Origin: Escherichia coli
GTDB lineage: Bacteria > Pseudomonadota > Gammaproteobacteria > Enterobacterales > Enterobacteriaceae
Assembly (NCBI RefSeq): GCF_011045215.1
Contig: NZ_CP049201.1
Direction: 5' to 3' (one strand)
Length of the DNA: 64,000 nucleotides
Made by a program: the position numbers and the translations under genes. The stretch's first letter is position 1. Every line of letters begins with the position of its first letter. Positions 1-15,142 of the stretch are shown in pieces. The notes below the pieces were generated by a model. That model saw only the letters and a program-made list of their open reading frames with translations, was not told the origin of the DNA and searched no databases.

Positions 1-1037
1 ATACGGGCAATTTTTATTTTGATGAATTTTTCTGGGTCAGTCGCTTTGCTGAACTGCGCAAGGTGGCTGGCGCTATGGCAACCCTCAGCGGACTGCGGCG
101 CACCTACTTCTCCACGCCATCCACCGAAACGCACGAGGCATACGCCTACTGGAACGGCGACCGCTGGAACGAGAAAAAGGCCTCGCATAAACGCCAGCGT
201 TTTTCTGTGGACTGGAAAACGCTGCATAACGGGCTTATCTGCCCTGACCGGACGTGGCGGCAAATTGTCACGCTGGAAGATGTGGTTAATCACGGCTGGA
301 AACACACCGATATTGACGAAATCCGTGATGAAAACACCGAAGACGAGTTCCTCAATCTCTATATGTGTGAGTTTGTTCGCGAAGGGGAATCGGCATTTAA
401 CCTGAATATCCTGATTGGCTGCGGTGTTGACGGATACGACGACTGGAAAGACTGGAAACCTTTTGCTCCCCGCCCGATGGGGAATCGTCCGGTATGGATT
501 GGGTATGACGCAAACGGCAGCAGTGGCAACGGCGACAGCGGCGCTGTGTCCGTGGTGGTTCCTCCGGCTGTTCCTGGTGGCCGTTTTCGAACGGTGGAGA
601 CGCGACGCGTTCAGGGGCTGGAGTTTGAAGAACAGGCCAGAGTCATTGAAGAGTTCACGTATCGCTACAACGTGGAACACATCGGCATTGATGTGACGGG
701 CGGGAACGGGGAGGCTGTTTATCAGATAGTGAAACGGTTTTTCCCTGCTGCTATTCCGTACACCTTCACGCTGTCATCAAAACGGTCGCTGGTACTGAAA
801 ATGCTGCAAATAATGCGTGCCGGGCGGTGGGAATACGATCGCGCCGAACGCGAGCTGGTCGCGGCCTTTAACGCCGTGCGTAAGGTGAAAACACCGGGCG
901 GCTTTATCACTTACGAAACGGACCGCGCGAGGGGGATCAGCCACGGCGACCTTGCGTGGGCAACCATGCTTGCTGTCATTAACGAACCGATTGGCGGCGA
1001 AGGAGAAAACGAGCGTTTCACGGTTATGGAGTTCTGA
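1..1037 (+). CDS. Phage terminase ATPase (large) subunit, P2 gpP-like; 5' end truncated by the window edge
   Basis: The frame is open from base 3 with no stop, so the listed GTG at 63 is not the true start. It is followed, with a 1-nt ATGA overlap, by the portal gene as in the P2 PQ operon. Codon usage is typical coding. Confidence 0.7.
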   Translation, partial: TGNFYFDEFFWVSRFAELRKVAGAMATLSGLRRTYFSTPSTETHEAYAYWNGDRWNEKKASHKRQRFSVDWKTLHNGLICPDRTWRQIVTLEDVVNHGWKHTDIDEIRDENTEDEFLNLYMCEFVREGESAFNLNILIGCGVDGYDDWKDWKPFAPRPMGNRPVWIGYDANGSSGNGDSGAVSVVVPPAVPGGRFRTVETRRVQGLEFEEQARVIEEFTYRYNVEHIGIDVTGGNGEAVYQIVKRFFPAAIPYTFTLSSKRSLVLKMLQIMRAGRWEYDRAERELVAAFNAVRKVKTPGGFITYETDRARGISHGDLAWATMLAVINEPIGGEGENERFTVMEF

Positions 1038-2083
1038 TGAGCAGAAAAAATAAAAAAGTGCGCATGAGTTCACGCATTGATCTCGCTGATGCGCTCAGGA
1101 AAGAATCATCGCTCAGTGCATTCACATTTGATGGTCCTTATCGCCTGACCGGGCATGACCTGCTGGACAATATGTACTGTGCTGATAACGGGCGGTGGTA
1201 TGAAACCCCGGTGGACTGGTACGGTCTGGCAAGAGCTGCCCGGCAAACGTCCTGGCATCAGTCTGCGCTTTACTTTAAGCGCAATGTATTACTCGGTTGC
1301 TACATCCCGCACCCGCTGCTTTCCCGGCAGGATTTCTCGGCGCTGGCGCTGGACTGGTTTGTGTTCGGTAACGCATTCCTTGAGCTTCGGAGCAATATGC
1401 TCGGCGAACCACTTAAATTACGGCACGCACTGGCGAAATACATGCGACGCGGAAGCGATCTTGAATCATGGTGGTATGTGCAGGATGGCAAGGACGCGTT
1501 TCAGTTTCGCCCTGGCAAAGTGTGCCACCTGATGAATCCGGACATTAACCAGGAAATTTACGGCATGCCGGAATATCTTGGAGCATTACTCTCGGCCAGC
1601 CTGTCTCATTCGGCGGACATGTTCAGAAAACTGTATTACGACAACGGATCCCACGCCGGGTGCATCATCTACATCGGTGCAGCGCAGGTAAACCGCGAAA
1701 GCATGGACTCCCTGAAAGAAACGTTACAGGGTGCGCGTGGTGGTGGTGCGTTTAAAAACGTGCTCATCCACGCGCCCAACGGGGGCAAAGAGGGGGTGCA
1801 AATTTTGCCGTTCCAGCAGATCACCGCAAAGGATGAGTTCATGAATGTTAAGGCGGCATCCCGTGATGATGTGCTGGCTGCGCACCGCGTTCCGCCGCAA
1901 CTGATGGGGGCGATGCCGGGCGAAAAAAGTGCGTTTGGTGATGTGGAGAAGGCCGCGCGGGTTTACGCAATTAACGAGCTGATGCCCGTCATGGAGGCTA
2001 TGAAGCACATCAATGACTGGCTTGGCGAAGAGGTGATCCGCTTTAACCCTTACGCACTGCTGGACACCCAGCCCACATCCTGA
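1037..2083 (+). CDS. Phage portal (capsid portal vertex) protein, P2 gpQ-like
   Basis: 348 aa ORF, the size of P2 Q (~344 aa), immediately downstream of the terminase gene with an ATGA overlap. It is the last gene before the cos-proximal non-coding region. Confidence 0.7.
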   Translation: MSRKNKKVRMSSRIDLADALRKESSLSAFTFDGPYRLTGHDLLDNMYCADNGRWYETPVDWYGLARAARQTSWHQSALYFKRNVLLGCYIPHPLLSRQDFSALALDWFVFGNAFLELRSNMLGEPLKLRHALAKYMRRGSDLESWWYVQDGKDAFQFRPGKVCHLMNPDINQEIYGMPEYLGALLSASLSHSADMFRKLYYDNGSHAGCIIYIGAAQVNRESMDSLKETLQGARGGGAFKNVLIHAPNGGKEGVQILPFQQITAKDEFMNVKAASRDDVLAAHRVPPQLMGAMPGEKSAFGDVEKAARVYAINELMPVMEAMKHINDWLGEEVIRFNPYALLDTQPTS

Positions 2084-2110
2084 CGCGCTTCGCTTGTCTG
2101 CTGCTTCGCC

Positions 2111-2133
2111 GGGGCATAAAAAATTTATGCCCC
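2111..2133 (+). other. Perfect 10-bp-stem hairpin (ggggcataaa/tttatgcccc) 28 bp after the portal stop; possible PQ-operon 3' structure
   Basis: Inverted repeat read directly from the sequence. There is no downstream T-run, so it is not called an intrinsic terminator. Confidence 0.4.
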
Positions 2134-2688
2134 GACTCTCCAGCTCTTGTATCAATCAGATAATTTCACGACGCTTTCCTGCTTATTGCCATCATCGACA
2201 GTCAGACTCTTACGCAATCCCACCGCGTTGACTGCATGTTCTCGCCGTCTCAGTGCGATTTTGACGGCCTTACCTTTCACCCCATCAAATCAAAAGCCCT
2301 CACGTCTTTTTCACGCTCAGCGTGAGAAATACAGCCATTCTGTTGTGTCGCTGCGACATCGTTCAGGGGATGCTATTTACCCCCTGAAACGCGGGCTGTT
2401 CCCCCGTCACCTGCGCGCAGAAAAAACGCGTTTTTTTGTGCACGCACGGTTCCCTGACGGATCCAGCCGCCACGCGGGTCGGAAGGGCAAAAAGTCGTTC
2501 AAAAAAATTGTGCAAATTTGTGCACTTTTGTGCAGGTAAGCATGCCCATATATTTGACCGTAGCTTGCCTTTGATGTAGTTTATGCGTCACAAAAACCAC
2601 AAAACGTGGTTATGATTTCTATGAGGGGGTTGATATGAAAAAAATGTATGATGAATTTGATGGTTTCTAAGCTACGTTGACCTCTAAT

Positions 2689-2717
2689 GAGGCGGGGATT
2701 TGCTCCCCGCCTTTTTT
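2689..2717 (+). terminator. Rho-independent terminator immediately upstream of the low-GC cassette
   Basis: GGCGGGGA-tttgc-TCCCCGCC stem-loop (8-bp GC-rich stem) followed by TTTTTT. Confidence 0.8.
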
Positions 2718-2731
2718 ATGGATGAAATAGG

Positions 2732-3229
2732 ATGAACCCAATAACACTACAAATCATCAGCAATGCTATTGTTCTGCTTGGCGTTTTGGTTGCCATTGGA
2801 ACCATTATCTACAATGTGCGTACCGCAAAAAAAACTCAAACGGCCAACTTTCTTTTTGAGAGTCGGCAAGATATGCAATATATAGAGTCATTGCATACCC
2901 TGAAACAAGTGCATCGTTCAGGCAAATCATTTCGTTCTTATGTTTTTCCTTGTGATGGTTGTACAATAACAGATGAGGAAATGGCCGAGCGTCGAAAATT
3001 TCAATATATTTTAAATTTTTACGAGCGAGTTGCTGTAAGTATTCGTGAAGGTATTTATGATGAAAAAATGATAAAAAGAACATCTTACACAACAGTTGTA
3101 GAGACATATGATATTGCCGAGCCATTAATTAAAGCAATCAGAGAAAGCATTAATTCGGATACTACATATCAAGAATTCGAATGGTTAGTAAGAAGATGGA
3201 AAGCTAATCCTTTACGGAAAAACAAATAA
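2732..3229 (+). CDS. Hypothetical single-pass membrane protein (165 aa), first gene of a low-GC cargo cassette; candidate defence/exclusion component
   Basis: ORF with an N-terminal hydrophobic helix (ITLQIISNAIVLLGVLVAIGTIIY) followed by a charged soluble domain. GC content is visibly lower than the flanking phage genes. No motif recognised. Confidence 0.7.
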   Translation: MNPITLQIISNAIVLLGVLVAIGTIIYNVRTAKKTQTANFLFESRQDMQYIESLHTLKQVHRSGKSFRSYVFPCDGCTITDEEMAERRKFQYILNFYERVAVSIREGIYDEKMIKRTSYTTVVETYDIAEPLIKAIRESINSDTTYQEFEWLVRRWKANPLRKNK

Positions 3230-3268
3230 TGTTTTACCCTTTAATTTACAAGTAACACAGGGGGAAGT

Positions 3269-4111
3269 GTGACACAGAATCCGTTTTCATTTTATGACTT
3301 TTTGGGCTATCTAATTCCAGGTGGGTTATTCCTGTTTATCCTTTTTTTGTTTTCTATTGAAATTAACCCTGTTTATATAGAAGGTATTCTTAACCACATC
3401 CTGAAATATAAAGAAATAATAAGTGTATTTATATATGTGGTATTAATTGTTCTATCATATATTTCAGGTCACTTCATATCTATTCTATCATCCTGTTTAA
3501 TTGAAAAATACATGAACAGTAAACTTGGGTATCCTTCAATTTATCTGTTTTCTAAAAGAAGCTCCCTGAAAATAAAACGACATAATACTAAGTTCAGTAT
3601 AGTTCATTTTATCCGTGGAGTTTTTTTACTTCCTGTATCAGCTTTTGATAAAGCAGAACATCATAAAACCACTCTGCATTCTATACTTATTAAAGTCTTT
3701 TGGCCGCAAATACGAGATGGTTATATAAATGTTTTTTCTGTATCTACGCTATATCGACGTAAGGGCTTGAGGGGCGATCTTTTTCGCCTTGCTTATCATT
3801 ATGTGTATGAACATTCTAAAAATCATCAGGTGAAAATGCAAAACTATGTTGCTTTGTATGGTTTTTGTAGAAACATTACATTTGTTTTTCTCGCTTCAGT
3901 CTGGTTGCTTATATGCCTGTTCCCTCTATCCTTTTTAATAGATATAAATATCAGGTTGTTACCTTTTTGTTTTCTTCTCTTGTTTTGTATTGCTGCATCC
4001 CGAGTATTTTATTATGGTTTTGTTAAGTATTATCGCCGCTATTCTCTTGAGGTTTTAATGGCATTTGCGGTACTTCAGCACGATAAAAAAACTTCGGCAA
4101 TTCCATCATGA
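3269..4111 (+). CDS. Hypothetical four-pass membrane protein (280 aa), second gene of the low-GC cargo cassette; candidate defence/exclusion component
   Basis: GTG start 6 nt after an AGGGGGA Shine-Dalgarno, 39 bp downstream of the previous gene. Four predicted hydrophobic helices (two N-terminal, two C-terminal) flank a ~110 aa basic central region. Low GC. Confidence 0.7.
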   Translation: MTQNPFSFYDFLGYLIPGGLFLFILFLFSIEINPVYIEGILNHILKYKEIISVFIYVVLIVLSYISGHFISILSSCLIEKYMNSKLGYPSIYLFSKRSSLKIKRHNTKFSIVHFIRGVFLLPVSAFDKAEHHKTTLHSILIKVFWPQIRDGYINVFSVSTLYRRKGLRGDLFRLAYHYVYEHSKNHQVKMQNYVALYGFCRNITFVFLASVWLLICLFPLSFLIDINIRLLPFCFLLLFCIAASRVFYYGFVKYYRRYSLEVLMAFAVLQHDKKTSAIPS

Positions 4112-4121
4112 TTTGAAACAT

Positions 4122-4146
4122 TGGCACCCTGTTAGCAAGGGTGCCA
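4122..4146. terminator. Hairpin between the convergent cassette gene and parR-like gene; possible bidirectional terminator
   Basis: tggcaccc-N9-gggtgcca 8-bp stem. The flanks are T/A-rich but lack a clean U-tract. Confidence 0.4.
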
Positions 4147-4194
4147 GAATGATGTGTTGGTATGTATTTTATTAGTTCAAATACAATTGTCAGA

Positions 4195-4509
4195 TTATTC
4201 TGGGAATAAGGTCTGAATATTCTTTTTTATTTTATAAAAATTGCATTCAACTCCGCTAGGCTGATTAGCCTGGTATGTTTCCTTGATGCTAACGGTATTG
4301 AAGGGGAGGTTGTCCTCTGGCCATTCGGCCATCCAGTAGGCAAATGCTGGGTTGCGCTTTATGAGTGCTAGCCCAGCCAGAAAGGCCGCGCGTTGCGCGC
4401 GGCTGCGTTCGGAGGCTGGCAGGCTATCGAGGTAATTGCACGCCTCCTGTTCACTCTTGACGGCGGCGGGCTTCAGATAGAAACTTATCCGTCTGGTTGG
4501 TGTCGTCAT
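4195..4509 (-). CDS. parR: ParR-like partition adaptor / centromere-binding protein
   Basis: 104 aa ORF directly downstream of the parM-like gene. The segment ISFYLKPAAVKSEQEACNYLDSLPASERSRAQRAAFLAGLALIKRNP resembles the plasmid R1 ParR N-terminal ribbon-helix-helix region, as recalled from memory. Confidence 0.7.
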   Translation of the reverse strand: MTTPTRRISFYLKPAAVKSEQEACNYLDSLPASERSRAQRAAFLAGLALIKRNPAFAYWMAEWPEDNLPFNTVSIKETYQANQPSGVECNFYKIKKNIQTLFPE

Positions 4510-4513
4510 TGGT

Positions 4514-5473
4514 TTACTCCTTGTTCATTGCGTACAGTCCATTAACCAGAGCAAACTGTGGCACCCCGTCCGCGATGAAAGTCGCATTAACTCCGCAGGC
4601 TTCGCGGATAGCGGGTGCCACAATCTCCGCCCCGCCACCGACAACCATCACCCGCCCGTAACCCGAAAAAACCGCCAGCGCGCGGATCACGCGTTGTTTC
4701 AGTGTTTCTTCCTTTTCACGAATAACCGCCATCAGGCTGGCGTAATGCGCGTCATTGTGGATGTGCTGGCGCAGCCAGGCTTCATCATGGCGATGTTCGA
4801 TAATGGTATTGGCGATGTGGTGACTGGTGCGCATACCGTTAGTGGCCATCACCGACAGTACGGCATCGGCCATCAGAGAAACGCCTACGTGTGGATCGCA
4901 AAACACCTGGCTGATACCTGCCAGTTGCCCCTGGACCTTTGCCACATCCAGCGTGGTTCCGCCCAAATCCACAATCAGCAGGGATTCAAACGGACTCATG
5001 TCAGCCAGTGCCTTAAAGCCAGCCGGAATGGATTCAGGCATAACCCGTACGTTACGGATAGTGAATGCTTCGCCGTTCTGGTACTCCACCGGGCGCATGA
5101 CGTTCGCTTTTTTGCGGTTGATGTTGGCCATGTCCGGCTGTGCGTTTGTGTCGAAATATTCGCTCAGTGGCAGGGTGACAACCACATCCACTTCCTGTGG
5201 TGTGATGCCTGATTTGACCAGCGCGTGATGAATGGCAATGACATTCACATCGCTGTACTGGTATTGCGTGTCGGTCGTCTGGACAAAGCGATCGCTGACC
5301 GGATCAAAACCATAGCGCACGCCATCAACCATGTAGTTCGCGGGCTGCGTGCCACCGAACGGCGCAGACCATTCCGACTTGAAGCTGTTCGGGCTGATGG
5401 CGTTGCGGCGTTCGCCGTTCTCAGTCCATGCCAGCTTGATGTTGGTGGAGCCGTCATCGATACAAATTTTCAT
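4514..5473 (-). CDS. parM: ParM/StbA-like actin-type segregation ATPase
   Basis: 319 aa. The N-terminus MKICIDDGSTNIKLAW and motifs LIVDLGGTTLD and VMVVGGGAEI resemble R1 ParM (actin-fold phosphate and adenosine motifs). An AAGGAAAAG Shine-Dalgarno lies upstream. Confidence 0.85.
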   Translation of the reverse strand: MKICIDDGSTNIKLAWTENGERRNAISPNSFKSEWSAPFGGTQPANYMVDGVRYGFDPVSDRFVQTTDTQYQYSDVNVIAIHHALVKSGITPQEVDVVVTLPLSEYFDTNAQPDMANINRKKANVMRPVEYQNGEAFTIRNVRVMPESIPAGFKALADMSPFESLLIVDLGGTTLDVAKVQGQLAGISQVFCDPHVGVSLMADAVLSVMATNGMRTSHHIANTIIEHRHDEAWLRQHIHNDAHYASLMAVIREKEETLKQRVIRALAVFSGYGRVMVVGGGAEIVAPAIREACGVNATFIADGVPQFALVNGLYAMNKE

Positions 5474-5507
5474 GTCGCTTTTCCTTATGTTGATTAATTA
5501 ATCGTTT

Positions 5508-5613
5508 GCGGGATTCTGAAATCCCGTTTTTGCCTGTTTTATGCGCGCTTCATATATCGCGGCGCGTTTTTTGCTCATTTACGGGATTTGTGAATCCCGT
5601 TTCTGTCTGTTTT
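5508..5613. repeat. Two ~33-bp direct repeats, each containing a gggatt-N5-aatccc inverted repeat, upstream of parM; candidate parC-like centromere/promoter or plus-strand terminator hairpins
   Basis: Repeat 1 at 5508-5540 (gcgggattctgaaatcccgtttttgcctgtttt) and repeat 2 at 5581-5613 (acgggatttgtgaatcccgtttctgtctgtttt). Repeat 2 overlaps the 3' end of the gpA-like gene. Confidence 0.5.
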
Positions 5614-8373
5614 TTTGTTTCCACTGGTCAGGCTACCCTGCAGCAGGTCTGCTTTGCGGCGGGCGCGTTCAGTGGTTTCACTGATTCTCTGTGCGTGCTC
5701 TGCGTCACAAATGGCGCGCAGCATGTCAGAAAGCACGGTAACGGGTGTTTTCATGGTGTTCTGGACCTGCTGAAGTGTGGATGCCAGGCGTGCGGCGGCT
5801 TCGGGGTCTGATGCCCCGAGCTGTGCCAGATAGCTGGCGACCGGGTTATGGCGGATCTCCGTGCTGCTTACGCCGTGATTACGGCTCAGGCGCTGCCAGA
5901 GCTGCGTGATTCGGCTGTCCGGGCGGGTATCCGGTTTACGTACAATTTCAAATCCCTGCGGTGAAATGATGCTGCCGTCAACGTACAGACTGCCGCCCCG
6001 TAACAGGTGCTGCATCTGCTGTTCACCGATATGCAGGCCGAGAGATTCAGCAGACTCCCGCCATTCTTTAGCGAGTAACTCGTGGTTATCAGGCAAAGGC
6101 CGCGGCTGTTTGCGGCTCTGTGTCCAGCTCTGCATTTCATCGCTGCTGTTTTTTGCCTGTTTGTCACGAAGCGAACGCATCAGCGCCCGGCGTTCGTGCC
6201 GTTTCAGTGAGCGCATCCATTCATTCACTTCAACGCCGTCAGGAAGCTGCGGCCACGGTGCTGGCCGTTCTTCCGACTGTTCTGTCCCGCTGTTGCCTGT
6301 TTCCTGTACACGGGGACAGTTATTGCCACGAGTCCAAGGGGCGGCAGGGCCGCCCTGAAGGTCAAAACCATTTTCGCGGGCGCTGTCTTCCGCTTCCGGT
6401 TTACGTCTTACCAGCTTCCAGTTATCCGGATGCGTGCACACACGGGAGGATTCCCCGATGAGTGGTGACCAGATCCCGTAAATCTGTACGCTCTGTTCGC
6501 CGTAATCGTTCAGCTCATCTGCGAGGTCGTAGGCGGTGCGAATCAGGTAGTCTTTACGTGGAACAAGTACGCCACCCTGTTTCTCAATGTAGGTGGCAAA
6601 ACATCCGGCATCAGCGGCAGCAAGAACCGCATCCATTGCGTCATCCTTCAGCCGTTGCGGGCCTTCCGGGTTGCGTGCCATCTGGCTGGCAAGGCGGCGG
6701 AGTTCACGCCACACCTGACGGGAGGGAATGCCAAAGAACTGGAACTGGCGGACCCGGTGAAGGCGCGCCCAGCCGATGGCGCGCTCCACGCTCTCGGCCA
6801 TTGATTTACCTGTTTCGTGGTCAACGCGTGGCTTGCCCGTTTTCGGGTCGATGCCATCCACGGCACGGCTGTCCAGGTTTTTCCCAATGTAGGTGGCGAT
6901 GTAGCTGGTCGGTGTGCCTTTTGAGCCGTCGACGTACTCCGCCTTAAAGCGTGGGGTAATATCATCACCCAGCTCGTGACGATCTTCCTGAATGGCAATA
7001 TCGCGGGTGTGGGACACAATGGTGTCGATTTCTTCCGGATGAGCAAAGACCATCATATGCCAGTGCACGGTGCCGTCATGGTGAGGCTCCACCGTGCGGA
7101 TGCCATACCAGCGCAGGCCGTCGCGGTTCAGTTTCTTGCGGACCGCCGCAAAAAACGTGTTAACCAGGTAATCGCTGGAGTCGCGCATGGTGGCCCCGTT
7201 CCATTTGGGATTCGGATGACCGTTCTCCGTTGTTGCGTGGTATTTTGACGGGCAGGTGACAGTCAGAAACACCGCTCTGTCGCCACGGGCTTCGGCCAGA
7301 AGTTCCAGCCCCTTCATGGTGGCCATCATTTCTGCCTTACGGTGAACCGGGTTACTTACTCCCGCGTAATACACTGTCTCGAGATCAATCGTGAACCCGT
7401 CTTCATTTTCCAGCATGAAACTTTTCAGGAAATCGCGTGTTTTCTCGCGCTGTGCGCGAAACTCGCTTAACGCGTCCTGGCTCAGATATGGTGATGTTTT
7501 TCTGGAAACCAGACAGGCGGCGCGGAGTTGTTCTTCTCTCCACTCGCAACGTAACAGCCACAGTTTGCGTTTCCACCATTCCGCACAGGTCAGGCGAAGG
7601 ATTGCGCCCGGCAGCAGCTCCGTGTCCGGTTCGTTCCTCCGGTCTTTGTCTGTCGTCAGTGCGTCATAATGTGGAGGCATGGCGTGCAGGTGTAACGCCA
7701 TGCGGGCCAGCATCTGATACGCCTTCAGCGTTACATCCATGGTCAGTTCACCATCAGTCGCGCCAAAGCCATCGCAGAGTTTTTCGAAGGTGCTGCTGAA
7801 CATCGCCGCCGTCATGGTGGCCAGCGTCTGTATCTGGTGTTTGTTGAGCTGCGGCAGGTAAAGCAAATCGTCCAGGCGTTCGCGTCCGGCAAGGGAGCGA
7901 TAACCCGGTGTCAGCCAGCGTCCGTCAGTGCGATCCAGACGTTCGAATATTTTGCGCAGGGTTCCGCGTGCATAGCGTTCCGCCTGCCAGCTCTTTTTGC
8001 CTTTCCTGCGATCGGCTTCCTGTTTTTTGCGCAGGAAGGAGAGGTGGCGAATAAGCGGATCGCGCAGATAGGACGGCAGCAGGCGCAGCGAGGCCATGGC
8101 TTCATCCACCGCGCCGCGTGCCTGTTTTCTGGCGTCTCCTGCCAGTGTGATGGTTTTGTCCTGTTTTTCCTGTGCGTCCAGGCTTTTATTAATCAGGTTG
8201 CCCAGCGGCGTGGCGGAGAACGCCGCATCAGCCATTTCCTGGCGGCGCTCGTTCTCTGCCCGGTAGGCATCCAGCCAGGAGGAAAGCGCGGATTCAGGAG
8301 CGGGGATCCCCGTTCCTTCACGCCCCACTGCGTGGCGCGGTTGTTGCCAGTCCCTGATGTACTCTGCCGTCAT
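5575..8373 (-). CDS. Phage replication initiation protein, P2 gpA family (HUH rolling-circle endonuclease)
   Basis: 932 aa ORF containing a TVHWHMMVF motif of the HUH type. Its position after the early-operon genes matches gene A of P2/186. Confidence 0.85.
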   Translation of the reverse strand: MTAEYIRDWQQPRHAVGREGTGIPAPESALSSWLDAYRAENERRQEMADAAFSATPLGNLINKSLDAQEKQDKTITLAGDARKQARGAVDEAMASLRLLPSYLRDPLIRHLSFLRKKQEADRRKGKKSWQAERYARGTLRKIFERLDRTDGRWLTPGYRSLAGRERLDDLLYLPQLNKHQIQTLATMTAAMFSSTFEKLCDGFGATDGELTMDVTLKAYQMLARMALHLHAMPPHYDALTTDKDRRNEPDTELLPGAILRLTCAEWWKRKLWLLRCEWREEQLRAACLVSRKTSPYLSQDALSEFRAQREKTRDFLKSFMLENEDGFTIDLETVYYAGVSNPVHRKAEMMATMKGLELLAEARGDRAVFLTVTCPSKYHATTENGHPNPKWNGATMRDSSDYLVNTFFAAVRKKLNRDGLRWYGIRTVEPHHDGTVHWHMMVFAHPEEIDTIVSHTRDIAIQEDRHELGDDITPRFKAEYVDGSKGTPTSYIATYIGKNLDSRAVDGIDPKTGKPRVDHETGKSMAESVERAIGWARLHRVRQFQFFGIPSRQVWRELRRLASQMARNPEGPQRLKDDAMDAVLAAADAGCFATYIEKQGGVLVPRKDYLIRTAYDLADELNDYGEQSVQIYGIWSPLIGESSRVCTHPDNWKLVRRKPEAEDSARENGFDLQGGPAAPWTRGNNCPRVQETGNSGTEQSEERPAPWPQLPDGVEVNEWMRSLKRHERRALMRSLRDKQAKNSSDEMQSWTQSRKQPRPLPDNHELLAKEWRESAESLGLHIGEQQMQHLLRGGSLYVDGSIISPQGFEIVRKPDTRPDSRITQLWQRLSRNHGVSSTEIRHNPVASYLAQLGASDPEAAARLASTLQQVQNTMKTPVTVLSDMLRAICDAEHAQRISETTERARRKADLLQGSLTSGNKKTDRNGIHKSRK

Positions 8374-8379
8374 AGTGAT

Positions 8380-8745
8380 TTACTTCGTCATGCCATTCAG
8401 GGTGTCGCGGCAGACTGTAGCCAGCCGCTGAATTTCCAGCACGGTGTCTTCTGTGTCGGCATGGCGATGTGTGATGCGGATGCTGTCGGCAATCACATCG
8501 ACGATTGCAGAGGATGGGCGCTGGTAAATGCCAATAACGGACGGGGTGCCACCTTCAATGCGGTAAAGCCTGTAATTTCCCTCGTGGCTGTCAATCATGT
8601 AGCGACCATCAATAACAATCTTTCCGTCAGCGAGCTGCGGTACAGGCAGAGATTTCAGGTACATGTCATAACGATCACGCACGCGAGCGGCAAGATCACG
8701 TTCTGTGTTGAGCAGGTATTCAAGAAAGTCGTTGGCGAGAATCAT
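8380..8745 (-). CDS. Hypothetical phage early-operon protein (121 aa)
   Basis: ORF immediately upstream of the gpA-like gene on the same strand with tight spacing. No motif recognised. Confidence 0.55.
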   Translation of the reverse strand: MILANDFLEYLLNTERDLAARVRDRYDMYLKSLPVPQLADGKIVIDGRYMIDSHEGNYRLYRIEGGTPSVIGIYQRPSSAIVDVIADSIRITHRHADTEDTVLEIQRLATVCRDTLNGMTK

Positions 8746-8817
8746 TGCGGCAATCCTCTTGTTACAGATGTGCGAAGGCCTCCCGCCGCAAGGTGCAGGA
8801 AAGGCCCGGAACAGGAA

Positions 8818-9048
8818 TTAATGGAGTTTGTTTTGCTGCTGGATGAGCTGTTGAAGCTCGTGCAGATCATCCGCCAGATAGCTGAAAACAGAGGCGGAAT
8901 AAATGTTTGATAGTGCGTGGCTGCGCTCATGCCGCATATTGATGTGCATGATTTGCGCGACGCGTGATGCGCGGGAAAGTCTGCGGTTGATTTCAGTCTG
9001 GATGTGACGACGCTCCGCGATAGCGCGGTGCTGTTTGCGGTCTGCCAT
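8818..9048 (-). CDS. Hypothetical phage early-operon protein (76 aa)
   Basis: ORF with an AAGAGG Shine-Dalgarno ~8 nt upstream of the ATG. Basic, helical-looking sequence. Confidence 0.45.
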   Translation of the reverse strand: MADRKQHRAIAERRHIQTEINRRLSRASRVAQIMHINMRHERSHALSNIYSASVFSYLADDLHELQQLIQQQNKLH

Positions 9049-9370
9049 GGTGTGGCCTCTTTGCTCGGTGATAGAAATAACTCACCATCCAGAGTTGAGA
9101 ATCTCGGGGTGGCGAGACGTACAGGGTTCTCAACACCGGAGAGCAAAGAATCCGGCCCGACCGAAGTCGGCCCCGTACGCCCCGCCATAATTCTGACGCG
9201 AAAAAGACGTGGCAATACAGTACGCACAAAAAAACCGCTTGCGCGGTTATGCGCTTTGCTCTGTATCGGGTTGAGAATCCCGGCACCCGTTTTATGAGGT
9301 GCAGCGGAAATGTAACCTGACCGATTGAGGCATGGCAAGCGGTTTTTTTGTGTGTGCATGTTCTGGTTTC

Positions 9371-9670
9371 TTAGTGGTTCAGAAAAAAATCAAAAACCTT
9401 GTCAATGCGTTGCAGCAGCTCTTTCTGTATTGCTTCCGGCGTTTCCGGTTCGCCTGGCGCCTCCAACGTCGCGCAGAAATCCTCGATTTCATGACGGAGC
9501 GTCAGGCGAATGGCGAGAGGTGTGGTTTTGGCGTGCTCCAGCTGATCCAGCAGTGCCAGCACAGCAGACGGCGAGAGCATTGCGCGAAATGCCAGTAATT
9601 TTTGAGGAGTTGCCATTCGTTGCAGGGCAAATGCCAGTTCGCGTAGCTTCTGGTGGTTGGTGGTGCTCAT
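9371..9670 (-). CDS. Hypothetical phage early-operon protein (99 aa)
   Basis: ORF whose start overlaps the stop of the upstream gene (ATGA), typical of this operon. Confidence 0.55.
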   Translation of the reverse strand: MSTTNHQKLRELAFALQRMATPQKLLAFRAMLSPSAVLALLDQLEHAKTTPLAIRLTLRHEIEDFCATLEAPGEPETPEAIQKELLQRIDKVFDFFLNH

Positions 9671-9933
9671 GTTCTGGCTTCCTTCAGTAGCTGGTTAAAC
9701 ATGTGAGTAAGTGGATTGCTACACCCGAACGGCATCGGGTTTACGTGGTAAGAAGCCTGGCCTCCAGTTTTGCGAGCGCGACCACCTGTGCTGCGGTTTG
9801 TTCTGATGACTAAGCCGCCGCGCCAAAGTCGGCGTAACTCAGTATTAATAGCTGTGGTTGGGGTGTTCAATGCTGCGGCGATCTCTCCGCCGCTACACCC
9901 CGGATGAGTAGCGATGTAGTCCAGAATGGTCAT
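9667..9933 (-). CDS. Putative winged-helix DNA-binding protein (88 aa)
   Basis: The sequence ILDYIATHPGCSGGEIAAALNTPTTAINTELRRLWRGGLVIRT looks like a winged helix-turn-helix. Translationally coupled to both neighbours. Confidence 0.6.
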   Translation of the reverse strand: MTILDYIATHPGCSGGEIAAALNTPTTAINTELRRLWRGGLVIRTNRSTGGRARKTGGQASYHVNPMPFGCSNPLTHMFNQLLKEART

Positions 9934-10133
9934 CTGCGTGGCTCCTGTACCTGTCGGATAAGATTCACCCGCGCCACGTTGGTGGCGCAGAAGTAAGTGC
10001 CGTCAGTGAGGTAGATGTGGTGTGCATCCTTTTCCGAACGATGTTTGTCGATAGTGGTAATCAGGCGTTCGTCGACCTCGTATTCGCGCCCTCTGGAGGT
10101 AAAGCGAACGACGGGAAAATGCTTAATTGCCAT
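9930..10133 (-). CDS. Hypothetical phage protein (67 aa)
   Basis: ORF with a 4-nt overlap onto the downstream gene. Confidence 0.5.
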   Translation of the reverse strand: MAIKHFPVVRFTSRGREYEVDERLITTIDKHRSEKDAHHIYLTDGTYFCATNVARVNLIRQVQEPRR

Positions 10134-10156
10134 TGCGCCCCCTTTGTCCAGTAACC

Positions 10157-10573
10157 CTATGCGTTAAATACGGCACGTTGCGCGTCATCAATGAATACAG
10201 CTTGAGAGCGTTCTATCAGGCGGAGATTTGTCAGAAGCTCTGACTCTTTTGTGTGGTAAGGCGTTATCAGGTATTTGCCGTGCAGTTCGGCAATAATGGT
10301 GTATTGCAGCATCATTGCTGAACCAAGAATATAAATGCAGCGTCCAATGCTGGACGGATTCATGGCTGCAACTGTTGACTGTGTTTTAAGAGTGTCGATT
10401 TCTTTGCTCTGTTCCTCAATAATTTTGGCTGCGTCAGCGGTGATTTTTGCAATGGTCAGTGCGTGAAGTGCTGCCATATGTTGGCTACGCTTCACGGCAT
10501 CTTTAGCCATTTCATCTTCCGCTTCTGATATTTTTTTTAATGTGTCGATAATGCCTTCTTCTTTTGCGTTCAT
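10157..10573 (-). CDS. Hypothetical phage protein (138 aa)
   Basis: ORF with a GGAGAT Shine-Dalgarno upstream. No recognisable motif. Confidence 0.55.
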   Translation of the reverse strand: MNAKEEGIIDTLKKISEAEDEMAKDAVKRSQHMAALHALTIAKITADAAKIIEEQSKEIDTLKTQSTVAAMNPSSIGRCIYILGSAMMLQYTIIAELHGKYLITPYHTKESELLTNLRLIERSQAVFIDDAQRAVFNA

Positions 10574-10665
10574 TTTATATCTCCGTTATTTACGTGTGCG
10601 AATACCTCCGCGAATGCGGATAGTTTTCAGGTTTTCGGGTTTAATCTGGTGTTTTGTTTAAGCTG

Positions 10666-10779
10666 TTATTCGTCAGTGAAAAAGCGTTCAATCTTTTTTA
10701 CTGAATGAATAATTCGCATAATCCCAATGGCGCAGGCCACCGAAATAATCAGAACAAGCCATGAGATAAATATACTCAT
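10666..10779 (-). CDS. Possible small hydrophobic protein (37 aa, MSIFISWLVLIISVACAIGIMRIIHSVKKIERFFTDE)
   Basis: Not in the supplied ORF track; read by hand. Its ATG overlaps the stop of the upstream 80-aa gene (ATGA), and it encodes one predicted transmembrane helix. Confidence 0.35.
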   Translation of the reverse strand: MSIFISWLVLIISVACAIGIMRIIHSVKKIERFFTDE

Positions 10780-11018
10780 GCGATATTCCCCAGCTTATAC
10801 GGTTCAATGTGTTCCCCGCATTCTGCGGCACAGATCAGCTCGGAAAGTTCGTTAAGTGCATCCAGATCATCAGCGTAAAAAGCGACGTCATACAAACTCC
10901 GGATTGCCCTGGTCAATGAGTCACGGGCTGCACGTTCAGCATGAGCGCCTGATGCACTTAAGCGAAAATAAAATCGTTCAAGTGCTTTATTAATGAGAGT
11001 TTTATATTCTTTGCCCAT
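10776..11018 (-). CDS. Hypothetical phage protein (80 aa)
   Basis: ORF in the operon series. Confidence 0.5.
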   Translation of the reverse strand: MGKEYKTLINKALERFYFRLSASGAHAERAARDSLTRAIRSLYDVAFYADDLDALNELSELICAAECGEHIEPYKLGNIA

Positions 11019-11029
11019 CGCAACGCCCT

Positions 11030-11308
11030 TTAATCTGCTTTCTGAATTTCAGCTTCTGAATCCATACAAATAATTTCGATATAGGGTTCATCGCCATTAA
11101 CCTGACGTGCCTTTTCAGCTTCGCTAATGATTTCTCGTACGGTCTGGTACGGAAGCTCCACAGTCAGGCGCGTACCGTTCAGATAAACGTAAGTAGCTGC
11201 GTTTTTTTCTGATGGGACGACTCCATCAATAGCTGATGCGCGTAATAACAGTTCACCGCGAAAATCAATAAAACGGATAAATACACCTTGTGCATGCTCT
11301 TTGGCCAT
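11030..11308 (-). CDS. Hypothetical phage protein (92 aa from ATG at 11308)
   Basis: The track ORF runs to 11407, but the ATG at 11308 has an AGGTG Shine-Dalgarno and avoids overlapping the upstream gene. Confidence 0.5.
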   Translation of the reverse strand: MAKEHAQGVFIRFIDFRGELLLRASAIDGVVPSEKNAATYVYLNGTRLTVELPYQTVREIISEAEKARQVNGDEPYIEIICMDSEAEIQKAD

Positions 11309-11318
11309 AAAGCACCTG

Positions 11319-11777
11319 TTATAAATCAGCCTGTTTAATGAAATTCTGTCCGCGCAGCAGACGATCAACCGTGCGTAGCGCTTCGTACAATGTGAAATCC
11401 TGCCCAAACTGATTGTCGCCGTTGCTCAGAGCAAAAATGCGGTTTCCGGTAAATGGGTTGTGCGGGCATCTGTGAACCACGATTCCAGCTTTCTCAATCA
11501 GCCAGGTGTGTTCACCAATTTGTTTTACGGGATGGCCATCAGGTGTGGCGTGTGTTTCGCTCAAGCTGTAGCGAGAGTTGCTACGCGATGCACTGTTAGC
11601 GAAACGGTTAGCATGGTGTTCCGCCCCGTTGCGGAAGCGTTGCTGTGAAGAATTGCACTGTTGCTTCATGTCAAAAACTCCGTACCTATTTACTTCCCCG
11701 GCATAACGCCCATTTTCAAAGTAATTGCGACGAAATCCCGTGTTGTGGGGCTTGCCATTTCGCTGCTGCTTACTCAT
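11319..11777 (-). CDS. Hypothetical phage protein (~152 aa from ATG at 11777)
   Basis: The track ORF starts at a TTG at 11804. The ATG at 11777 (MSKQQ...) has a GAGG Shine-Dalgarno and does not overlap the upstream gene. Confidence 0.5.
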   Translation of the reverse strand: MSKQQRNGKPHNTGFRRNYFENGRYAGEVNRYGVFDMKQQCNSSQQRFRNGAEHHANRFANSASRSNSRYSLSETHATPDGHPVKQIGEHTWLIEKAGIVVHRCPHNPFTGNRIFALSNGDNQFGQDFTLYEALRTVDRLLRGQNFIKQADL

Positions 11778-11788
11778 TTTTCGTGCCT

Positions 11789-11995
11789 CTACCCGATGAG
11801 CCAAATAACAAACGCTGTGAGCACCGCACCAATGGTGATCGGAAAAAGACCTCTGGCATAAGCGGCGAGGTAATGAACGTTGAGAACAATAAAGCGTTCT
11901 TTTTGTCCTGTTAGCTTGCTAAGCAGATAAATCGCTATTACACCCACTTCTAGGAATACAAGGTCCAAAATGGCGCTGGTGATATTGTTGGTCAT
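11789..11995 (-). CDS. Small membrane protein (68 aa, two hydrophobic helices)
   Basis: ORF directly downstream of the cox-like gene. Hydrophobic composition. Confidence 0.5.
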   Translation of the reverse strand: MTNNITSAILDLVFLEVGVIAIYLLSKLTGQKERFIVLNVHYLAAYARGLFPITIGAVLTAFVIWLIG

Positions 11996-12001
11996 TTATG
12001 A

Positions 12002-12289
12002 TTAAAGCCCCAGCCACAACAACCATGCATCGCGGCGTTCTTTCGGCTGATCAAAAAACGCTTTGCGCATACCTGCGTTAAATGCTGGCAGATATACCCA
12101 GTTTTCTGATGCTCGCGTCTTCACTGAACCTGGTTTCACAAAGTCAATCGTTGGTAATTTTGCAGCGTCAATCATGGTTCTGACGGTTGATTCTTTGCGA
12201 CCAATCATCTTGGCAAATAGTTGATATGGCACCGCTTCAAGTGGATATGGTGCTACCTGAATGAACCCCTCAAGCTCTGATTCGCTCAT
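12002..12289 (-). CDS. cox: Cox-like excisionase / lytic-switch regulator (P2 Cox family)
   Basis: The segment PYQLFAKMIGRKESTVRTMIDAAKLPTIDF...NWVYLPAFNAGMRKAF...RDAWLLWLGL resembles remembered P2 Cox. It is the first gene of the leftward operon, divergent from the repressor gene. Start chosen at MSESE (AAGGAG Shine-Dalgarno); the track ORF extends to 12325. Confidence 0.75.
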   Translation of the reverse strand: MSESELEGFIQVAPYPLEAVPYQLFAKMIGRKESTVRTMIDAAKLPTIDFVKPGSVKTRASENWVYLPAFNAGMRKAFFDQPKERRDAWLLWLGL

Positions 12290-12404
12290 TGTGGTAATCT
12301 CCTTAATTCGTCCAAATGGCCCCAAATGGCTTATATAGGCTTATTTTGGCTATTTGAATGTTTTGTATTACATGTAACCCAATAGCGTGGAGTTTAGATC
12401 ACAT
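12290..12404. promoter_or_regulatory. Divergent early/repressor promoter-operator region (Pe/Pc-type immunity switch)
   Basis: 115-bp AT-rich intergenic region between the divergent cox-like and C-like genes. It carries tandem CCAAATGGC repeats (12312-12320, 12322-12330) and GGCTTA repeats. Confidence 0.6.
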
Positions 12405-12725
12405 ATGATCCATAAATCAAGCCTTGGAGAAAAACTTCGCCTGATTCGAGAGGCAGAGGGATTGTCACGTAGAGAGATGGAAGAGGTGACAGGGGTATCT
12501 CAAAACAATCTCAAAAATTATGAAATATTGGGAAGAATGATACCTGGAGAAACGCTACTCCTGATTTTGAATCATCCTCGTTTTCGGAAGTATTCGGATT
12601 GGGTGATGTTTAATCAAACTAATGCTGCGACGGGGCAGATTGCTCCGCCTCTCTCTCTTGATGGCTTCTTCGATTCGGAGGGCGATCAGGTTTCAACCGA
12701 AACAAACCAAAAATCACCCCGCTAA
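12405..12725 (+). CDS. Immunity repressor, P2 C-like (HTH)
   Basis: The segment LSRREMEEVTGVSQNNLKNYE...RFRKYSDWVMFNQTNAATGQIAPPLS resembles remembered P2 C (LSRQQLADLTGVPYGTLSYYE...QFTKYTLWFMTNQIAPESGQIAPAL). Start placed at the ATG at 12405; the track GTG at 12387 lacks a Shine-Dalgarno. Confidence 0.75.
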   Translation: MIHKSSLGEKLRLIREAEGLSRREMEEVTGVSQNNLKNYEILGRMIPGETLLLILNHPRFRKYSDWVMFNQTNAATGQIAPPLSLDGFFDSEGDQVSTETNQKSPR

Positions 12726-12821
12726 GGCCAGAAAACTGGTTAGACCTGCTCTTTGTCTGGTCTGATTATTGCTGGAAAGAGGCTGGAGAAATTGTAGAGC
12801 GGTTCATTGGAGGGCTTCGCA

Positions 12822-13826
12822 ATGTCAATTAAGAAGCTCGAAGATGGTCGTTATTTGCTGGACATCAGGCCGAACGGACGCAAGGGAAAGCGCGTGCGTA
12901 AGGTATTTGACAAAAAATCGGTAGCGGTGGCCACTGAACGCTACATCATGGCGAACGCTGAAAAGCGGGAATATATACAGGGCTACCGTGATCGCCGAAC
13001 GCTAAATGATTTGCTTGAGTTGTGGTGGATGTATCACGGTCAACACAGGCGTAAGGCGGAAGAAGACCGAAAACAACTGCGCAACATAATCAATGAGCTT
13101 GGCGCTGATATGCAGGCTGTGGATCTTGATAAGCTGAAAATTATCGCGTGGCGTTCTCAAAAGATAGCTGATGGATTGAAACCGTCATCTGCTAACAGAT
13201 ACATGAATCGGTTATCCGGAATGTTTACCGTACTGAAGAAAATAGGCCTCTGGGATGCAGAACATCCGGTAAGGGGAATTTCTATTCTTTATGTATCTCC
13301 ACGAGAAATGGCTTTCCTGTCCCAGAAGGAAGTGGCGCTATTGCTCGATACACTGGAGGGCGATTACTGGCGTGTTGCGCTTTTGTGTTTAAGCACGGGG
13401 GCGCGCTGGAGTGAAGCTTGTAAGCTTCGTGGTGAACAGATAGTTCATAACCGTGTAACGTTTCTTGAAACCAAAAATGGCCGAAAGAGAACAGTGCCAA
13501 TTTCGCAGGCAGTTTGTGAGGCGATCAAAACCAGAGAAACAGGCGGCTTGTTTGAGGTGAAGTACCGGGAATTCTGCTTGGCGCTGAAAAGAGTTAAGCC
13601 CGATTTGCCAAAAGGCCAGGCTGCACATGTGCTGCGGCATACGTTCGCCAGCCATTTTGTGATGAACGGAGGAAACATTATTGCGCTTCAGAAGATTCTT
13701 GGCCACGCAACCATTCAGCAAACAATGGCATATGCACATTTTGCACCGGATTACCTGCAGGATGCGGTGGCCCTTAATCCGCTGAAAGGTGGCGTGAGTG
13801 TCCACGCAGTGTCCACGGGGGATTAA
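12822..13826 (+). CDS. int: Tyrosine integrase, P2 Int family
   Basis: The N-terminus MSIKKLEDGRYLLDIRPNGRKGKRVRK and C-terminal HVLRHTFASHF...MAYAHFAPDYLQDAVALNPL (catalytic His/Arg/Tyr region) closely resemble remembered P2 Int. GGAGGG Shine-Dalgarno 7 nt upstream of the ATG; the track TTG at 12807 is an alternative start. Confidence 0.9.
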   Translation: MSIKKLEDGRYLLDIRPNGRKGKRVRKVFDKKSVAVATERYIMANAEKREYIQGYRDRRTLNDLLELWWMYHGQHRRKAEEDRKQLRNIINELGADMQAVDLDKLKIIAWRSQKIADGLKPSSANRYMNRLSGMFTVLKKIGLWDAEHPVRGISILYVSPREMAFLSQKEVALLLDTLEGDYWRVALLCLSTGARWSEACKLRGEQIVHNRVTFLETKNGRKRTVPISQAVCEAIKTRETGGLFEVKYREFCLALKRVKPDLPKGQAAHVLRHTFASHFVMNGGNIIALQKILGHATIQQTMAYAHFAPDYLQDAVALNPLKGGVSVHAVSTGD

Positions 13827-13984
13827 TTTTATATAGCCTGAAACGGCTTAAAGGGCGATACTGAATAACAATTTTTCAGTATTGCCCGTCTAAATGGTTA
13901 TGTTGTTATCTGTATGATTATGAATGTTTTTTCAGATTAAACAGCAGTTTGCAAATGGGCGTTTGTTAATAAAGGAGCCTTAGA

Positions 13985-15142
13985 TTGTCAGAGACTGAAA
14001 AAGGGTTAAAAATCCTTGTTGATGAAAATATGCCTTATGCCCGCGACTTATTTAGCCGTTTGGGTGAGGTGATCGCGGTTCCCGGGCGTCCAATCCCCGT
14101 CGCTCAACTGGCAGACGCGGATGCGCTGATGGTGCGTTCGGTCACGAAAGTGAATGAATCTTTGCTGGCAGGAAAACCCATTAAATTTGTTGGCACTGCC
14201 ACTGCGGGGACCGACCATGTCGATGAAGCATGGTTGAAGCAGGCGGGAATTGGTTTTTCCGCTGCACCTGGCTGTAATGCGATTGCGGTGGTGGAATATG
14301 TTTTCTCCTCCCTGCTGATGCTTGCCGAACGCGATGGATTTTCACTGCACGAGCGTACCGTGGGGATCGTAGGCGTTGGTAACGTTGGTCGGCGTTTACA
14401 GGCACGACTGGAAGCGTTAGGGATTAAAACCTTACTTTGCGATCCGCCTCGCGCCGACTGTGGGGATGAGGGTGATTTCCGCTCGCTGGATGAGTTAGTC
14501 CAGCGCGCGGATATTCTGACTTTCCATACGCCACTCTTCAAAGACGGGCCGTACAAAACGCTGCATCTGGCGGATGAAAAACTGATCCGTAGCCTGAAGC
14601 CCGGAGCGATTCTGATTAACGCCTGCCGTGGCGCAGTCGTCGATAATACCGCGCTGCTGACCTGCCTGAATGAAGGCCAGAAGTTAAGCGTAGTGCTGGA
14701 TGTCTGGGAAGGCGAACCGGAACTAAATGTGGAATTGCTGACAAAAGTGGATATCGGCACGCCGCATATTGCAGGCTATACCCTGGAAGGTAAAGCACGC
14801 GGTACTACGCAAGTGTTTGAAGCCTATAGCAAGTTTATTGGGCATGAACAGCACGTTGCGCTGGATACATTACTGCCCGCGCCAGAGTTTGGTCGCATTA
14901 CTCTGCATGGACCGCTCGATCAACCGACGCTGAAAAAGCTGGTGCATTTGGTGTATGATGTGCGCCGCGATGACGCACCGTTGCGTAAAGTCGCCGGGAT
15001 ACCGGGTGAGTTCGATAAACTGCGCAAAAACTATCTTGAGCGCCGTGAATGGTCATCTCTGTATGTAATTTGTGATGACGCCAGTGCGGCATCATTGCTG
15101 TGTAAACTGGGTTTTAACGCCGTTCATCATCCGGCACGTTAA
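13985..15142 (+). CDS. pdxB: Erythronate-4-phosphate dehydrogenase
   Basis: The translation matches remembered E. coli PdxB throughout ([21 protein letters not shown]...). Start uncertain: TTG at 13985 with an AGGAG Shine-Dalgarno, or ATG at 14012. The codon preceding Lys-Ile-Leu is TTA, not a start codon. Confidence 0.9.

Follow-up and report, generated by a model that had tools for sequence, protein, structure and literature searches.

Phage-borne Shine–Dalgarno sequence, TTG codon and leader at the 5′ end of pdxB in a natural Escherichia coli lysogen

Phage 21 and e14, which integrate in icd, and phages that target tRNA genes carry in attP a surrogate sequence that rebuilds the displaced end of the host gene. 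A second known element of phage attachment regions is lambda sib, an RNA hairpin downstream of int in the att region that lies across the core and is uncoupled from int by integration. The closest described system to the locus analyzed here is the Citrobacter rodentium phage PhiSM: the passages of Magaziner et al. (J Bacteriol, 2019; PMC6456863) on its attachment site give attP as ATCCTTGTTGATGAAAA at the 5′ end of pdxB in E. coli K-12, note a phage-borne TTG and AAGGAG that read into pdxB, and report wild-type growth on M9 glucose for MG1655(PhiSM) lysogens, which have the same junction. Here we analyze a natural E. coli lysogen with a prophage at this position, using a stretch of 64,000 nucleotides from contig NZ_CP049201.1 (assembly GCF_011045215.1), hereafter the window. 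Taken as a whole, the evidence makes it very likely that a pdxB-targeting P2-like prophage supplies the Shine–Dalgarno sequence, TTG start and leader of pdxB; our preferred reading is that the gene is read mainly from the C–int transcript of the prophage.

Prophage, attachment core and junction

On the basis of nucleotide similarity and gene order, positions 1–14028 of the window can be assigned to the right 14 kb of a P2-like prophage of the genus Xuanwuvirus, PhiSM/P88 type (Peduoviridae). A 1,709-nt query covering the cox 5′ end, C, int and the P arm (12300–14008) shares 97.9% nucleotide identity with Shae_phiSM, 95.4% with PhiR44_2 and 94.3% with Xuanwuvirus P884B11. The ORF map and PHROG matches reveal a P2-like gene order of terminase/portal, gpA replication endonuclease, cox, C and int, backed by the full annotation of a near-identical prophage in the lysogen O145 RM8988-C1, where the positions of the two core copies give a prophage length of ~37.5 kb. 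To the left of cox and C lie a gpA-type replication endonuclease gene (5575–8373, minus strand), a ParM-type partition gene and the portal and terminase genes. A cox-like gene (12002–12289, minus strand; phrog_272, E = 2.9e-38), the predicted excisionase and repressor of the lysogenic promoter, is annotated as a Cox family DNA-binding protein in the O145 counterpart and diverges from the gene for a C-type helix-turn-helix (HTH) immunity repressor (12405–12725, plus strand; phrog_147 transcriptional regulator, E = 1e-22), which is named ‘C protein’ in PhiSM and is the first gene of a rightward C–int operon. The 334-residue tyrosine integrase (12822–13826, plus strand; Pfam Int_N 1e-22, Phage_integrase 1.6e-20; phrog_1 1.6e-75) is 54% identical overall in amino acid sequence to a P2-type Int and near-identical to it in the N-terminal arm-binding domain. 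Its stop codon occupies 13824–13826 in the ORF list, the end point given in the initial annotation, and the host genes pdxB–usg–truA–dedA–accD follow to the right of the junction in both the ORF list and the O145 annotation.

We defined the attachment core by aligning attR of the window with attL of O145 RM8988-C1, attB of K-12 and attP of phages Chuche and P88_4B11. The alignment reveals a 20-bp common core, AAAATCCTTGTTGATGAAAA, that forms pdxB codons 2–8 at 14009–14028 on the plus strand, is identical in attB (K-12), attL (O145 RM8988-C1), attP (phage Chuche) and attR (the window), and contains the 17-bp PhiSM att sequence ATCCTTGTTGATGAAAA printed in PMC6456863. P88_4B11 has a natural T>G variant of the core, at the position that corresponds to 14023. 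A short core overlapping the pdxB 5′ end had been anticipated from the window sequence, as had the lack of a tRNA or tmRNA target, and ARAGORN finds neither type of gene in the whole window. The junction itself had been placed about 160 bp upstream of pdxB, and this was wrong: homology to prophage-free genomes begins exactly at 14009, at pdxB codon 2. K-12 is identical from AAAATCC rightward and has no identity leftward, and a 701-nt query spanning int to pdxB matches over its full length in 302 of 5,426 complete E. coli genomes, the remaining E. coli genomes matching only from query position 410, which is window position 14009. The outcome that the initial annotation had named as counting against its reading, full identity with prophage-free strains as far as the int stop combined with a canonical start codon, was not seen in these alignments.

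The P arm of attR, 182 nt from the int stop to the core (13827–14008, plus strand), is present in lysogens and free phages and absent from empty-site genomes. In the free genomes of Chuche and P88_4B11, the int stop, 182-nt spacer, core and P′ arm are contiguous and form a complete attP, and the P arm is also found in the free PhiSM genome; 13827–14008 is therefore phage DNA and not a host remnant, and the 158-nt spacer between the int stop and the TTG (13827–13984) is wholly phage-derived. Among 5,426 complete E. coli genomes, the P arm occurs at ≥95% identity in 303 (~5.6%) and an intact flk–pdxB site without the P arm in 5,122, which together account for all 5,425 that have pdxB.

The window holds one copy of the core, with no second copy at ≤3 mismatches, because it starts inside the prophage; attL falls outside it and was therefore taken from O145 RM8988-C1. 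There, a phage DNA methyltransferase gene and flk flank the other end of the prophage, which holds the expected core copy in the sequence ...aaacGTG AAAATCCTTGTTGATGAAAA aaacaaagattt...; the native promoter and GTG now encode only a 14-residue peptide, MKILVDEKNKDLIS, behind which the P′ arm of the phage supplies a terminator. In our reading, the tyrosine integrase has recombined the prophage into the 20-bp core, and integration has left the native promoter, GTG start and a core copy behind at attL.

Two tandem copies of the putative arm-type Int site AGTGTCCACG, a direct repeat with an 11-bp period, overlie the last int codons at 13797–13817 on the plus strand. The sequence GTGTCCAC occurs in the 64 kb only as those two copies, and a matching pair, GTGTCCACGCAGTGACCAC, is found in the P′ arm of both free-phage attP and attL. 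Read on the opposite strand, the AGTGTCCACG repeats correspond to the consensus for P2-type arm binding, tgTGGaCa (PMC3448106). As in P2-type phages, arm-binding direct repeats flank the core on both sides, and the P2-type attP is likewise laid out as arm repeats, core, inverted repeat, arm repeats and terminator.

A phage-derived start cassette in frame with pdxB

The 3′ end of the P arm carries a Shine–Dalgarno sequence, AAGGAG (13972–13977, plus strand), 7 nt before a TTG that opens a leader of eight codons (TTG plus seven; 13985–14008, plus strand) in frame with pdxB. The last of these is TTA (14006–14008), as the initial annotation had observed of the codon before Lys, and the Lys codon AAA begins at 14009; integration thus swaps the native pdxB GTG for TTA. 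Both starts that had been put forward, a TTG eight codons upstream and an ATG downstream, exist in frame, the former at 13985 and the latter at 14030–14032 on the plus strand, where it encodes native Met9. The K-12 PdxB N-terminus given for that comparison was right in its residues, but the native start codon is GTG and not ATG. From the TTG, the ORF list gives a chimeric pdxB coding sequence of 385 codons (13985–15142, plus strand) composed of eight phage codons and host codons 2–378, whose product is MSETEKGL fused to KILVDEN. The canonical native-start N-terminus M-K-I-L-V-D-E-N is accordingly absent, replaced either by the phage TTG, with a net gain of seven residues, or by Met9.

The suspicion that the N-terminal codons of this pdxB came from the phage proved correct, since free-phage attP carries the AAGGAG, the TTG and all eight leader codons, which establishes the cassette as phage DNA. 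In the free phage, the same TTG opens a mini-ORF of 21 codons that ends before the P′-arm terminator. We examined variation across the arm in 28 sequences of E. coli, phage and metagenome origin, which represent 17 haplotypes. AAGGAG is invariant in all 28, and among the 17 haplotypes only 2 of the 37 positions from the Shine–Dalgarno sequence to the end of the leader vary, one of them in the gap between AAGGAG and the TTG, the second a synonymous AAA>AAG substitution at 14002 that is the sole leader variant. Upstream of the Shine–Dalgarno sequence the arm is more variable, with changes at 21 of 119 positions, hairpin loop included (one-sided Fisher p = 0.05 for less variation in the cassette). 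The cassette is thus conserved within a drifting arm.

Forms of attP occur in phage isolates and metagenomes, and a metagenome scan for any Shine–Dalgarno–start–leader arrangement before the core returned pdxB-linked matches that all have this same P arm, the other matches being due to chance; IMG/VR yielded two matches only. We also surveyed 43 loci with integrase relatives (35–82% identity) in other species, sampling one genome per species, and none adjoins pdxB. The 82%-identical Int, from an Escherichia sp., differs in its C-terminus and in the region downstream of it, and therefore offers no independent P-arm design for comparison.

Transcription and translation of pdxB in the lysogen

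The initial annotation had raised the possibility that the pdxB promoter is phage-derived, and this follows by necessity: the native promoter is stranded at attL, ~37.5 kb away, so transcription of pdxB must come from phage DNA. On the plus strand between C and pdxB we found no terminator-like site except a weak 5-bp stem inside int, and the terminator of the attachment region lies just beyond the core in the P′ arm. In P2, C and int are co-transcribed from Pc. With this precedent and no terminator after C, read-through from C–int is the simplest source of pdxB message, and we infer that in the lysogen most pdxB message comes from the distal part of the lysogenic C–int transcript, to which a weak P-arm promoter such as TTGCCC-16-TGTTAT (13882–13909) may contribute. 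A simple consensus scan upstream of the Shine–Dalgarno sequence returned no promoter. Position weight matrix (PWM) scoring of the same region gave two candidates, TTGCCC-16-TGTTAT with a TG extension and CTAAAT-17-TATGAT, that score no better than many chance sites.

An alternative that we regard as possible, if somewhat doubtful, is that a hairpin after int efficiently terminates the C–int transcript and that pdxB depends entirely on a promoter of its own within the P arm, the arrangement put forward for PhiSM. The hairpin that the initial annotation had described is real and has the 13-bp stem claimed for it, although its position is 13853–13887 and not 13844–13878, which is 9 nt too low. 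Its arms, GGGCGATACTGAA (13853–13865) and TTCAGTATTGCCC (13875–13887), pair on the plus strand with one G·U pair and enclose a 9-nt loop, and the fold has a predicted energy of −21 kcal/mol (z = −7.8; none of 200 shuffles as good). The strength of this structure, its location directly after the int stop and its conservation in four of four related phage genomes and in lysogens all speak for this alternative, as does the retention of the TTGCCC-16-TGTTAT candidate with its TG extension in nearly all haplotypes. Against this, the stem is followed by GUCUAAAU in place of a U-rich tract, and terminator scans made no call on either strand: the element is a stable stem-loop without the U-tract of an intrinsic (Rho-independent) terminator. 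A −21 kcal/mol hairpin could terminate better than the missing U-tract suggests, which would favor a P-arm promoter over read-through.

The specific promoter predicted for PhiSM (−35 TTGCAA, −10 TAAAGG; PMC6456863) corresponds to 13949–13954 and 13970–13975 in the window, and we reject it in the form given in that paper. Its −10 element overlaps the Shine–Dalgarno sequence at 13972–13977, so that transcription from it would begin ~3 nt ahead of the TTG and leave AAGGAG out of the message, making the promoter and the ribosome-binding site mutually incompatible; the pair also falls outside the 12 best PWM hits.

Returning to read-through from C–int as the preferred source of pdxB message, the sequence of the hairpin suggests what role it may have. 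Variation across the 17 haplotypes affects 1 of the 26 stem positions, 3 of the 9 loop positions and 18 of the 110 positions elsewhere in the arm (one-sided p = 0.06 for stem versus rest of arm), and the sole stem change, 13856 C>T in PhiSM, L058 and L063, gives a U·G pair. Both departures of the hairpin from a perfect palindrome pair as wobble on the plus strand only, and that strand folds better than the minus strand (−16.2 kcal/mol), which mildly favors an RNA role on the int transcript. An Rfam search of 11500–14500 returned no family match at E ≤ 1. Because it has no U-tract, the hairpin would be at most a partial attenuator or a 3′-end stabilizer of the C–int message, and our best guess is a structure of this attenuating or 3′-end-protective kind.

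A DNA function for the inverted repeat, in which it would bind a dimeric accessory protein or induce a bend within the attP intasome, appears improbable to us. The repeat does lie in attP between the Int arm sites (13797–13817) and the core, its center, the loop, tolerates change as the middle of a spaced palindromic operator would, and the P2 attP has accessory-protein sites between the arm-type sites and the core. The wobble-compatible departures and the better fold of the plus strand, however, count against this function, no match to the IHF consensus WATCAANNNNTTR at ≤1 mismatch is present in 13780–14060, the arm included, and the P2-type attP has no equivalent palindrome at that place.

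If C–int read-through is the source of pdxB transcription, a further and rather unlikely extension is that pdxB serves as the third cistron of the prophage immunity operon (Pc–C–int–pdxB) in lysogens, with the hairpin setting how much transcription passes from int to pdxB. Such an arrangement would wire vitamin B6 synthesis to the phage lysis–lysogeny switch, Cox repression of Pc at induction would shut off pdxB, and host growth-rate control of pdxB would be lost.

For translation, the placement of AAGGAG, TTG and seven more codons before the remaining pdxB codons suggests that PdxB is made as 385 residues from the TTG with its first β-strand retained, and we infer TTG use on this basis. PdxB aligns to Salmonella PdxB (3OET) with E = 4e-224, the alignment starting at the KILVDEN strand, and to the solved structures 5DT9 (Vibrio; 4.5e-115) and 2O4C (9e-98); the KILVDEN N-terminal strand is conserved in the Salmonella (3OET) and Vibrio (5DT9) proteins. 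Initiation instead at ATG 14030 (Met9), with the TTG ORF incidental and a 370-residue product lacking the first eight residues, is very improbable: it is the annotated RefSeq/PGAP start in many lysogens, and the best-scoring sigma-70-like match in the region (TTGTCA-17-AAAAAT, 13985–14013) would begin a transcript just upstream, but such matches occur at chance frequency (2 found, 1.0 expected), no Shine–Dalgarno sequence precedes this ATG, the product would lose a KILVDEN strand that precedes Met9 and that solved PdxB structures share from E. coli to Vibrio, and the phage keeps AAGGAG 7 nt from an in-frame TTG in a near-invariant cassette while the rest of the arm drifts.

RefSeq annotation of pdxB in lysogens is inconsistent, which is of practical consequence. 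The start is split between the 385-residue TTG form, annotated in 14 of the 40 lysogens listed (for example WP_071829263.1), and the 370-residue Met9 form, annotated in the other 26 (about two thirds) and in further lysogens; the shorter RefSeq PdxB probably misstates the protein. The P arm would then act as a ready-made 5′ replacement cassette within attP that keeps lysogens prototrophic for vitamin B6.

Comparison with known phage attachment systems

Given 97.9% identity to PhiSM and a shared att site, the junction in the window is a natural instance of the arrangement published for PhiSM in 2019, and in that sense was already known. PhiSM (Shae_phiSM, OR565851.1) has the same integrase lineage, the same att sequence and the same phage AAGGAG and TTG, but the K-12 lysogen described for it was made in the laboratory whereas the prophage analyzed here is in a natural E. 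coli lysogen. Measured against the passages of PMC6456863 that describe the site, our analysis adds several refinements. The identity block is 20 bp here and 17 bp in that account; the native pdxB start is GTG where that account states ATG; and the AAA codon lies inside the core and is hence phage-supplied too, which differs from that account. Those passages also make no mention of the hairpin, which we find to be conserved, of the arm-type sites over the int 3′ end, or of the P′-arm terminator that caps the orphaned native promoter, and to these are added the split in RefSeq start annotation and the incompatibility of promoter and ribosome-binding site. The last of these has practical weight, as the promoter given in the literature cannot be combined with the ribosome-binding site proposed there. 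Both the principle and this att site were published with PhiSM, and the scientific gain is therefore small; the locus nonetheless shows cleanly, in a natural lysogen, how a phage can target a housekeeping gene at its 5′ end and bring a pre-built replacement for the translation start of that gene. The feature singled out in the initial annotation is real, and its reading is supported apart from the wording of the junction in its title and the hairpin coordinates. In the literature searched, no paper besides PMC6456863 links pdxB to a phage integrase. WPhi was considered as a source of the att site and set aside, as its Int region has only ~71% nucleotide identity and no paper was found that links WPhi to pdxB.

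Relative to P2, the prophage shares a recombination module with the order cox/C/int, tandem TGTCCAC repeats on both arms and a terminator beyond the P′ arm, but has a different core and a different target that lies inside a protein-coding gene. Unlike in P2, the P-arm sites overlap the int stop region, and the P arm contains a translation-initiation cassette and a hairpin, both of which are absent from the int-proximal arm of the P2-type attP. The hairpin resembles lambda sib in that both are RNA hairpins located downstream of int in the att region, whereas sib lies across the core from int; the hairpin described here is found between int and the core in attP as well as in attR. It thus remains linked to int in phage and prophage alike, cannot tell the two states apart and therefore cannot act like sib. 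Like phage 21, e14 and the tRNA-targeting phages, the prophage leaves its target gene functional through a gene end carried in attP. Those phages, however, rebuild the 3′ end of the gene and do not touch the host promoter or start, whereas here the 5′ end is replaced, and the promoter, ribosome-binding site and start codon of pdxB would therefore be phage-derived and PdxB would gain seven residues.

Attachment-site sequences

In the attL of the near-identical lysogen O145 RM8988-C1, we observed a canonical terminator (L003:18103-18124, outside the window) formed by AAGCCCGCAACATTGCGGGCTT followed by TGTCTTAT and positioned within the phage P′ arm just past the core. In the lysogen this element lies downstream of the native pdxB promoter, now orphaned, and of a stub ORF of 14 codons, and in the free phage it lies downstream of a 21-codon mini-ORF that begins with TTG. 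The 20-bp core itself varies in phage Xuanwuvirus P88_4B11 (L004), where attP carries a T>G mismatch to attB at the equivalent of window position 14023 (TTGAGGAAAATA) and continues past the mismatch with a host-like AAAATA where phages usually have AAAAAA. This core variant could aid in placing the points of strand exchange.

The switch region between the divergent cox (12002-12289, minus strand) and C repressor (12405-12725, plus strand) genes contains tandem CCAAATGGC repeats at 12311-12350, spaced by ~11 bp and followed by degenerate copies with GGC ends, and the P arm of attP contains AAATGG twice (13890-13898 and 13951-13959). These repeats are possible Cox boxes common to the switch region and attP. 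AAATGG occurs 60 times in the window, and the motif by itself is not statistically compelling.

The pdxB start in lysogens and in K-12

RefSeq/PGAP annotation presents lysogen pdxB in two forms, a 385-aa protein initiated at the phage TTG (13985) and a 370-aa protein initiated at native Met9 (14030). The long form is found in 14 of the 40 lysogens listed. The 370-aa form does not include the conserved first strand of PdxB and is probably a mis-annotation. For integration of phage PhiSM, the published account describes loss of the pdxB "ATG" start and AAA codon (PMC6456863). In contrast to that account, the K-12 pdxB start codon is GTG (L002:2998), and comparison with K-12 places the AAA codon within sequence common to phage and host.

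Cargo and partition genes

In the interval from the portal gene to the partition module, plus-strand cargo ORFs at 2147-4111 encode a 165-aa protein of unknown function (phrog_2284) and a multi-pass membrane protein of 280 aa (phrog_12528), which PADLOC matches weakly to Csx27 (E = 6e-6). Because the near-identical O145 prophage has other genes in this position, the segment appears to be a variable hotspot for moron or defence genes. On the minus strand at 4195-5473, this integrating P2-like prophage also houses a ParM-type partition protein (phrog_691, E = 1.6e-90), accompanied by a small partner gene; the O145 copy has the pair annotated as plasmid segregation and stability genes.

P arm copy number and a related integrase

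Across the E. coli genome collection, the P arm is present in 306 copies in 303 matching genomes, with two copies in at least one genome; the extra copies could represent tandem lysogeny or a second site. Escherichia sp. MOD1-EC7003 (L007:3500-4000) encodes an integrase that is 82% identical to that of the window and has a different C-terminal tail. Downstream of this gene lies not pdxB but a region with closely packed GCGGTTACA(A) repeats that run in both orientations, and the MOD1-EC7003 element therefore has a different attachment region despite its close integrase.
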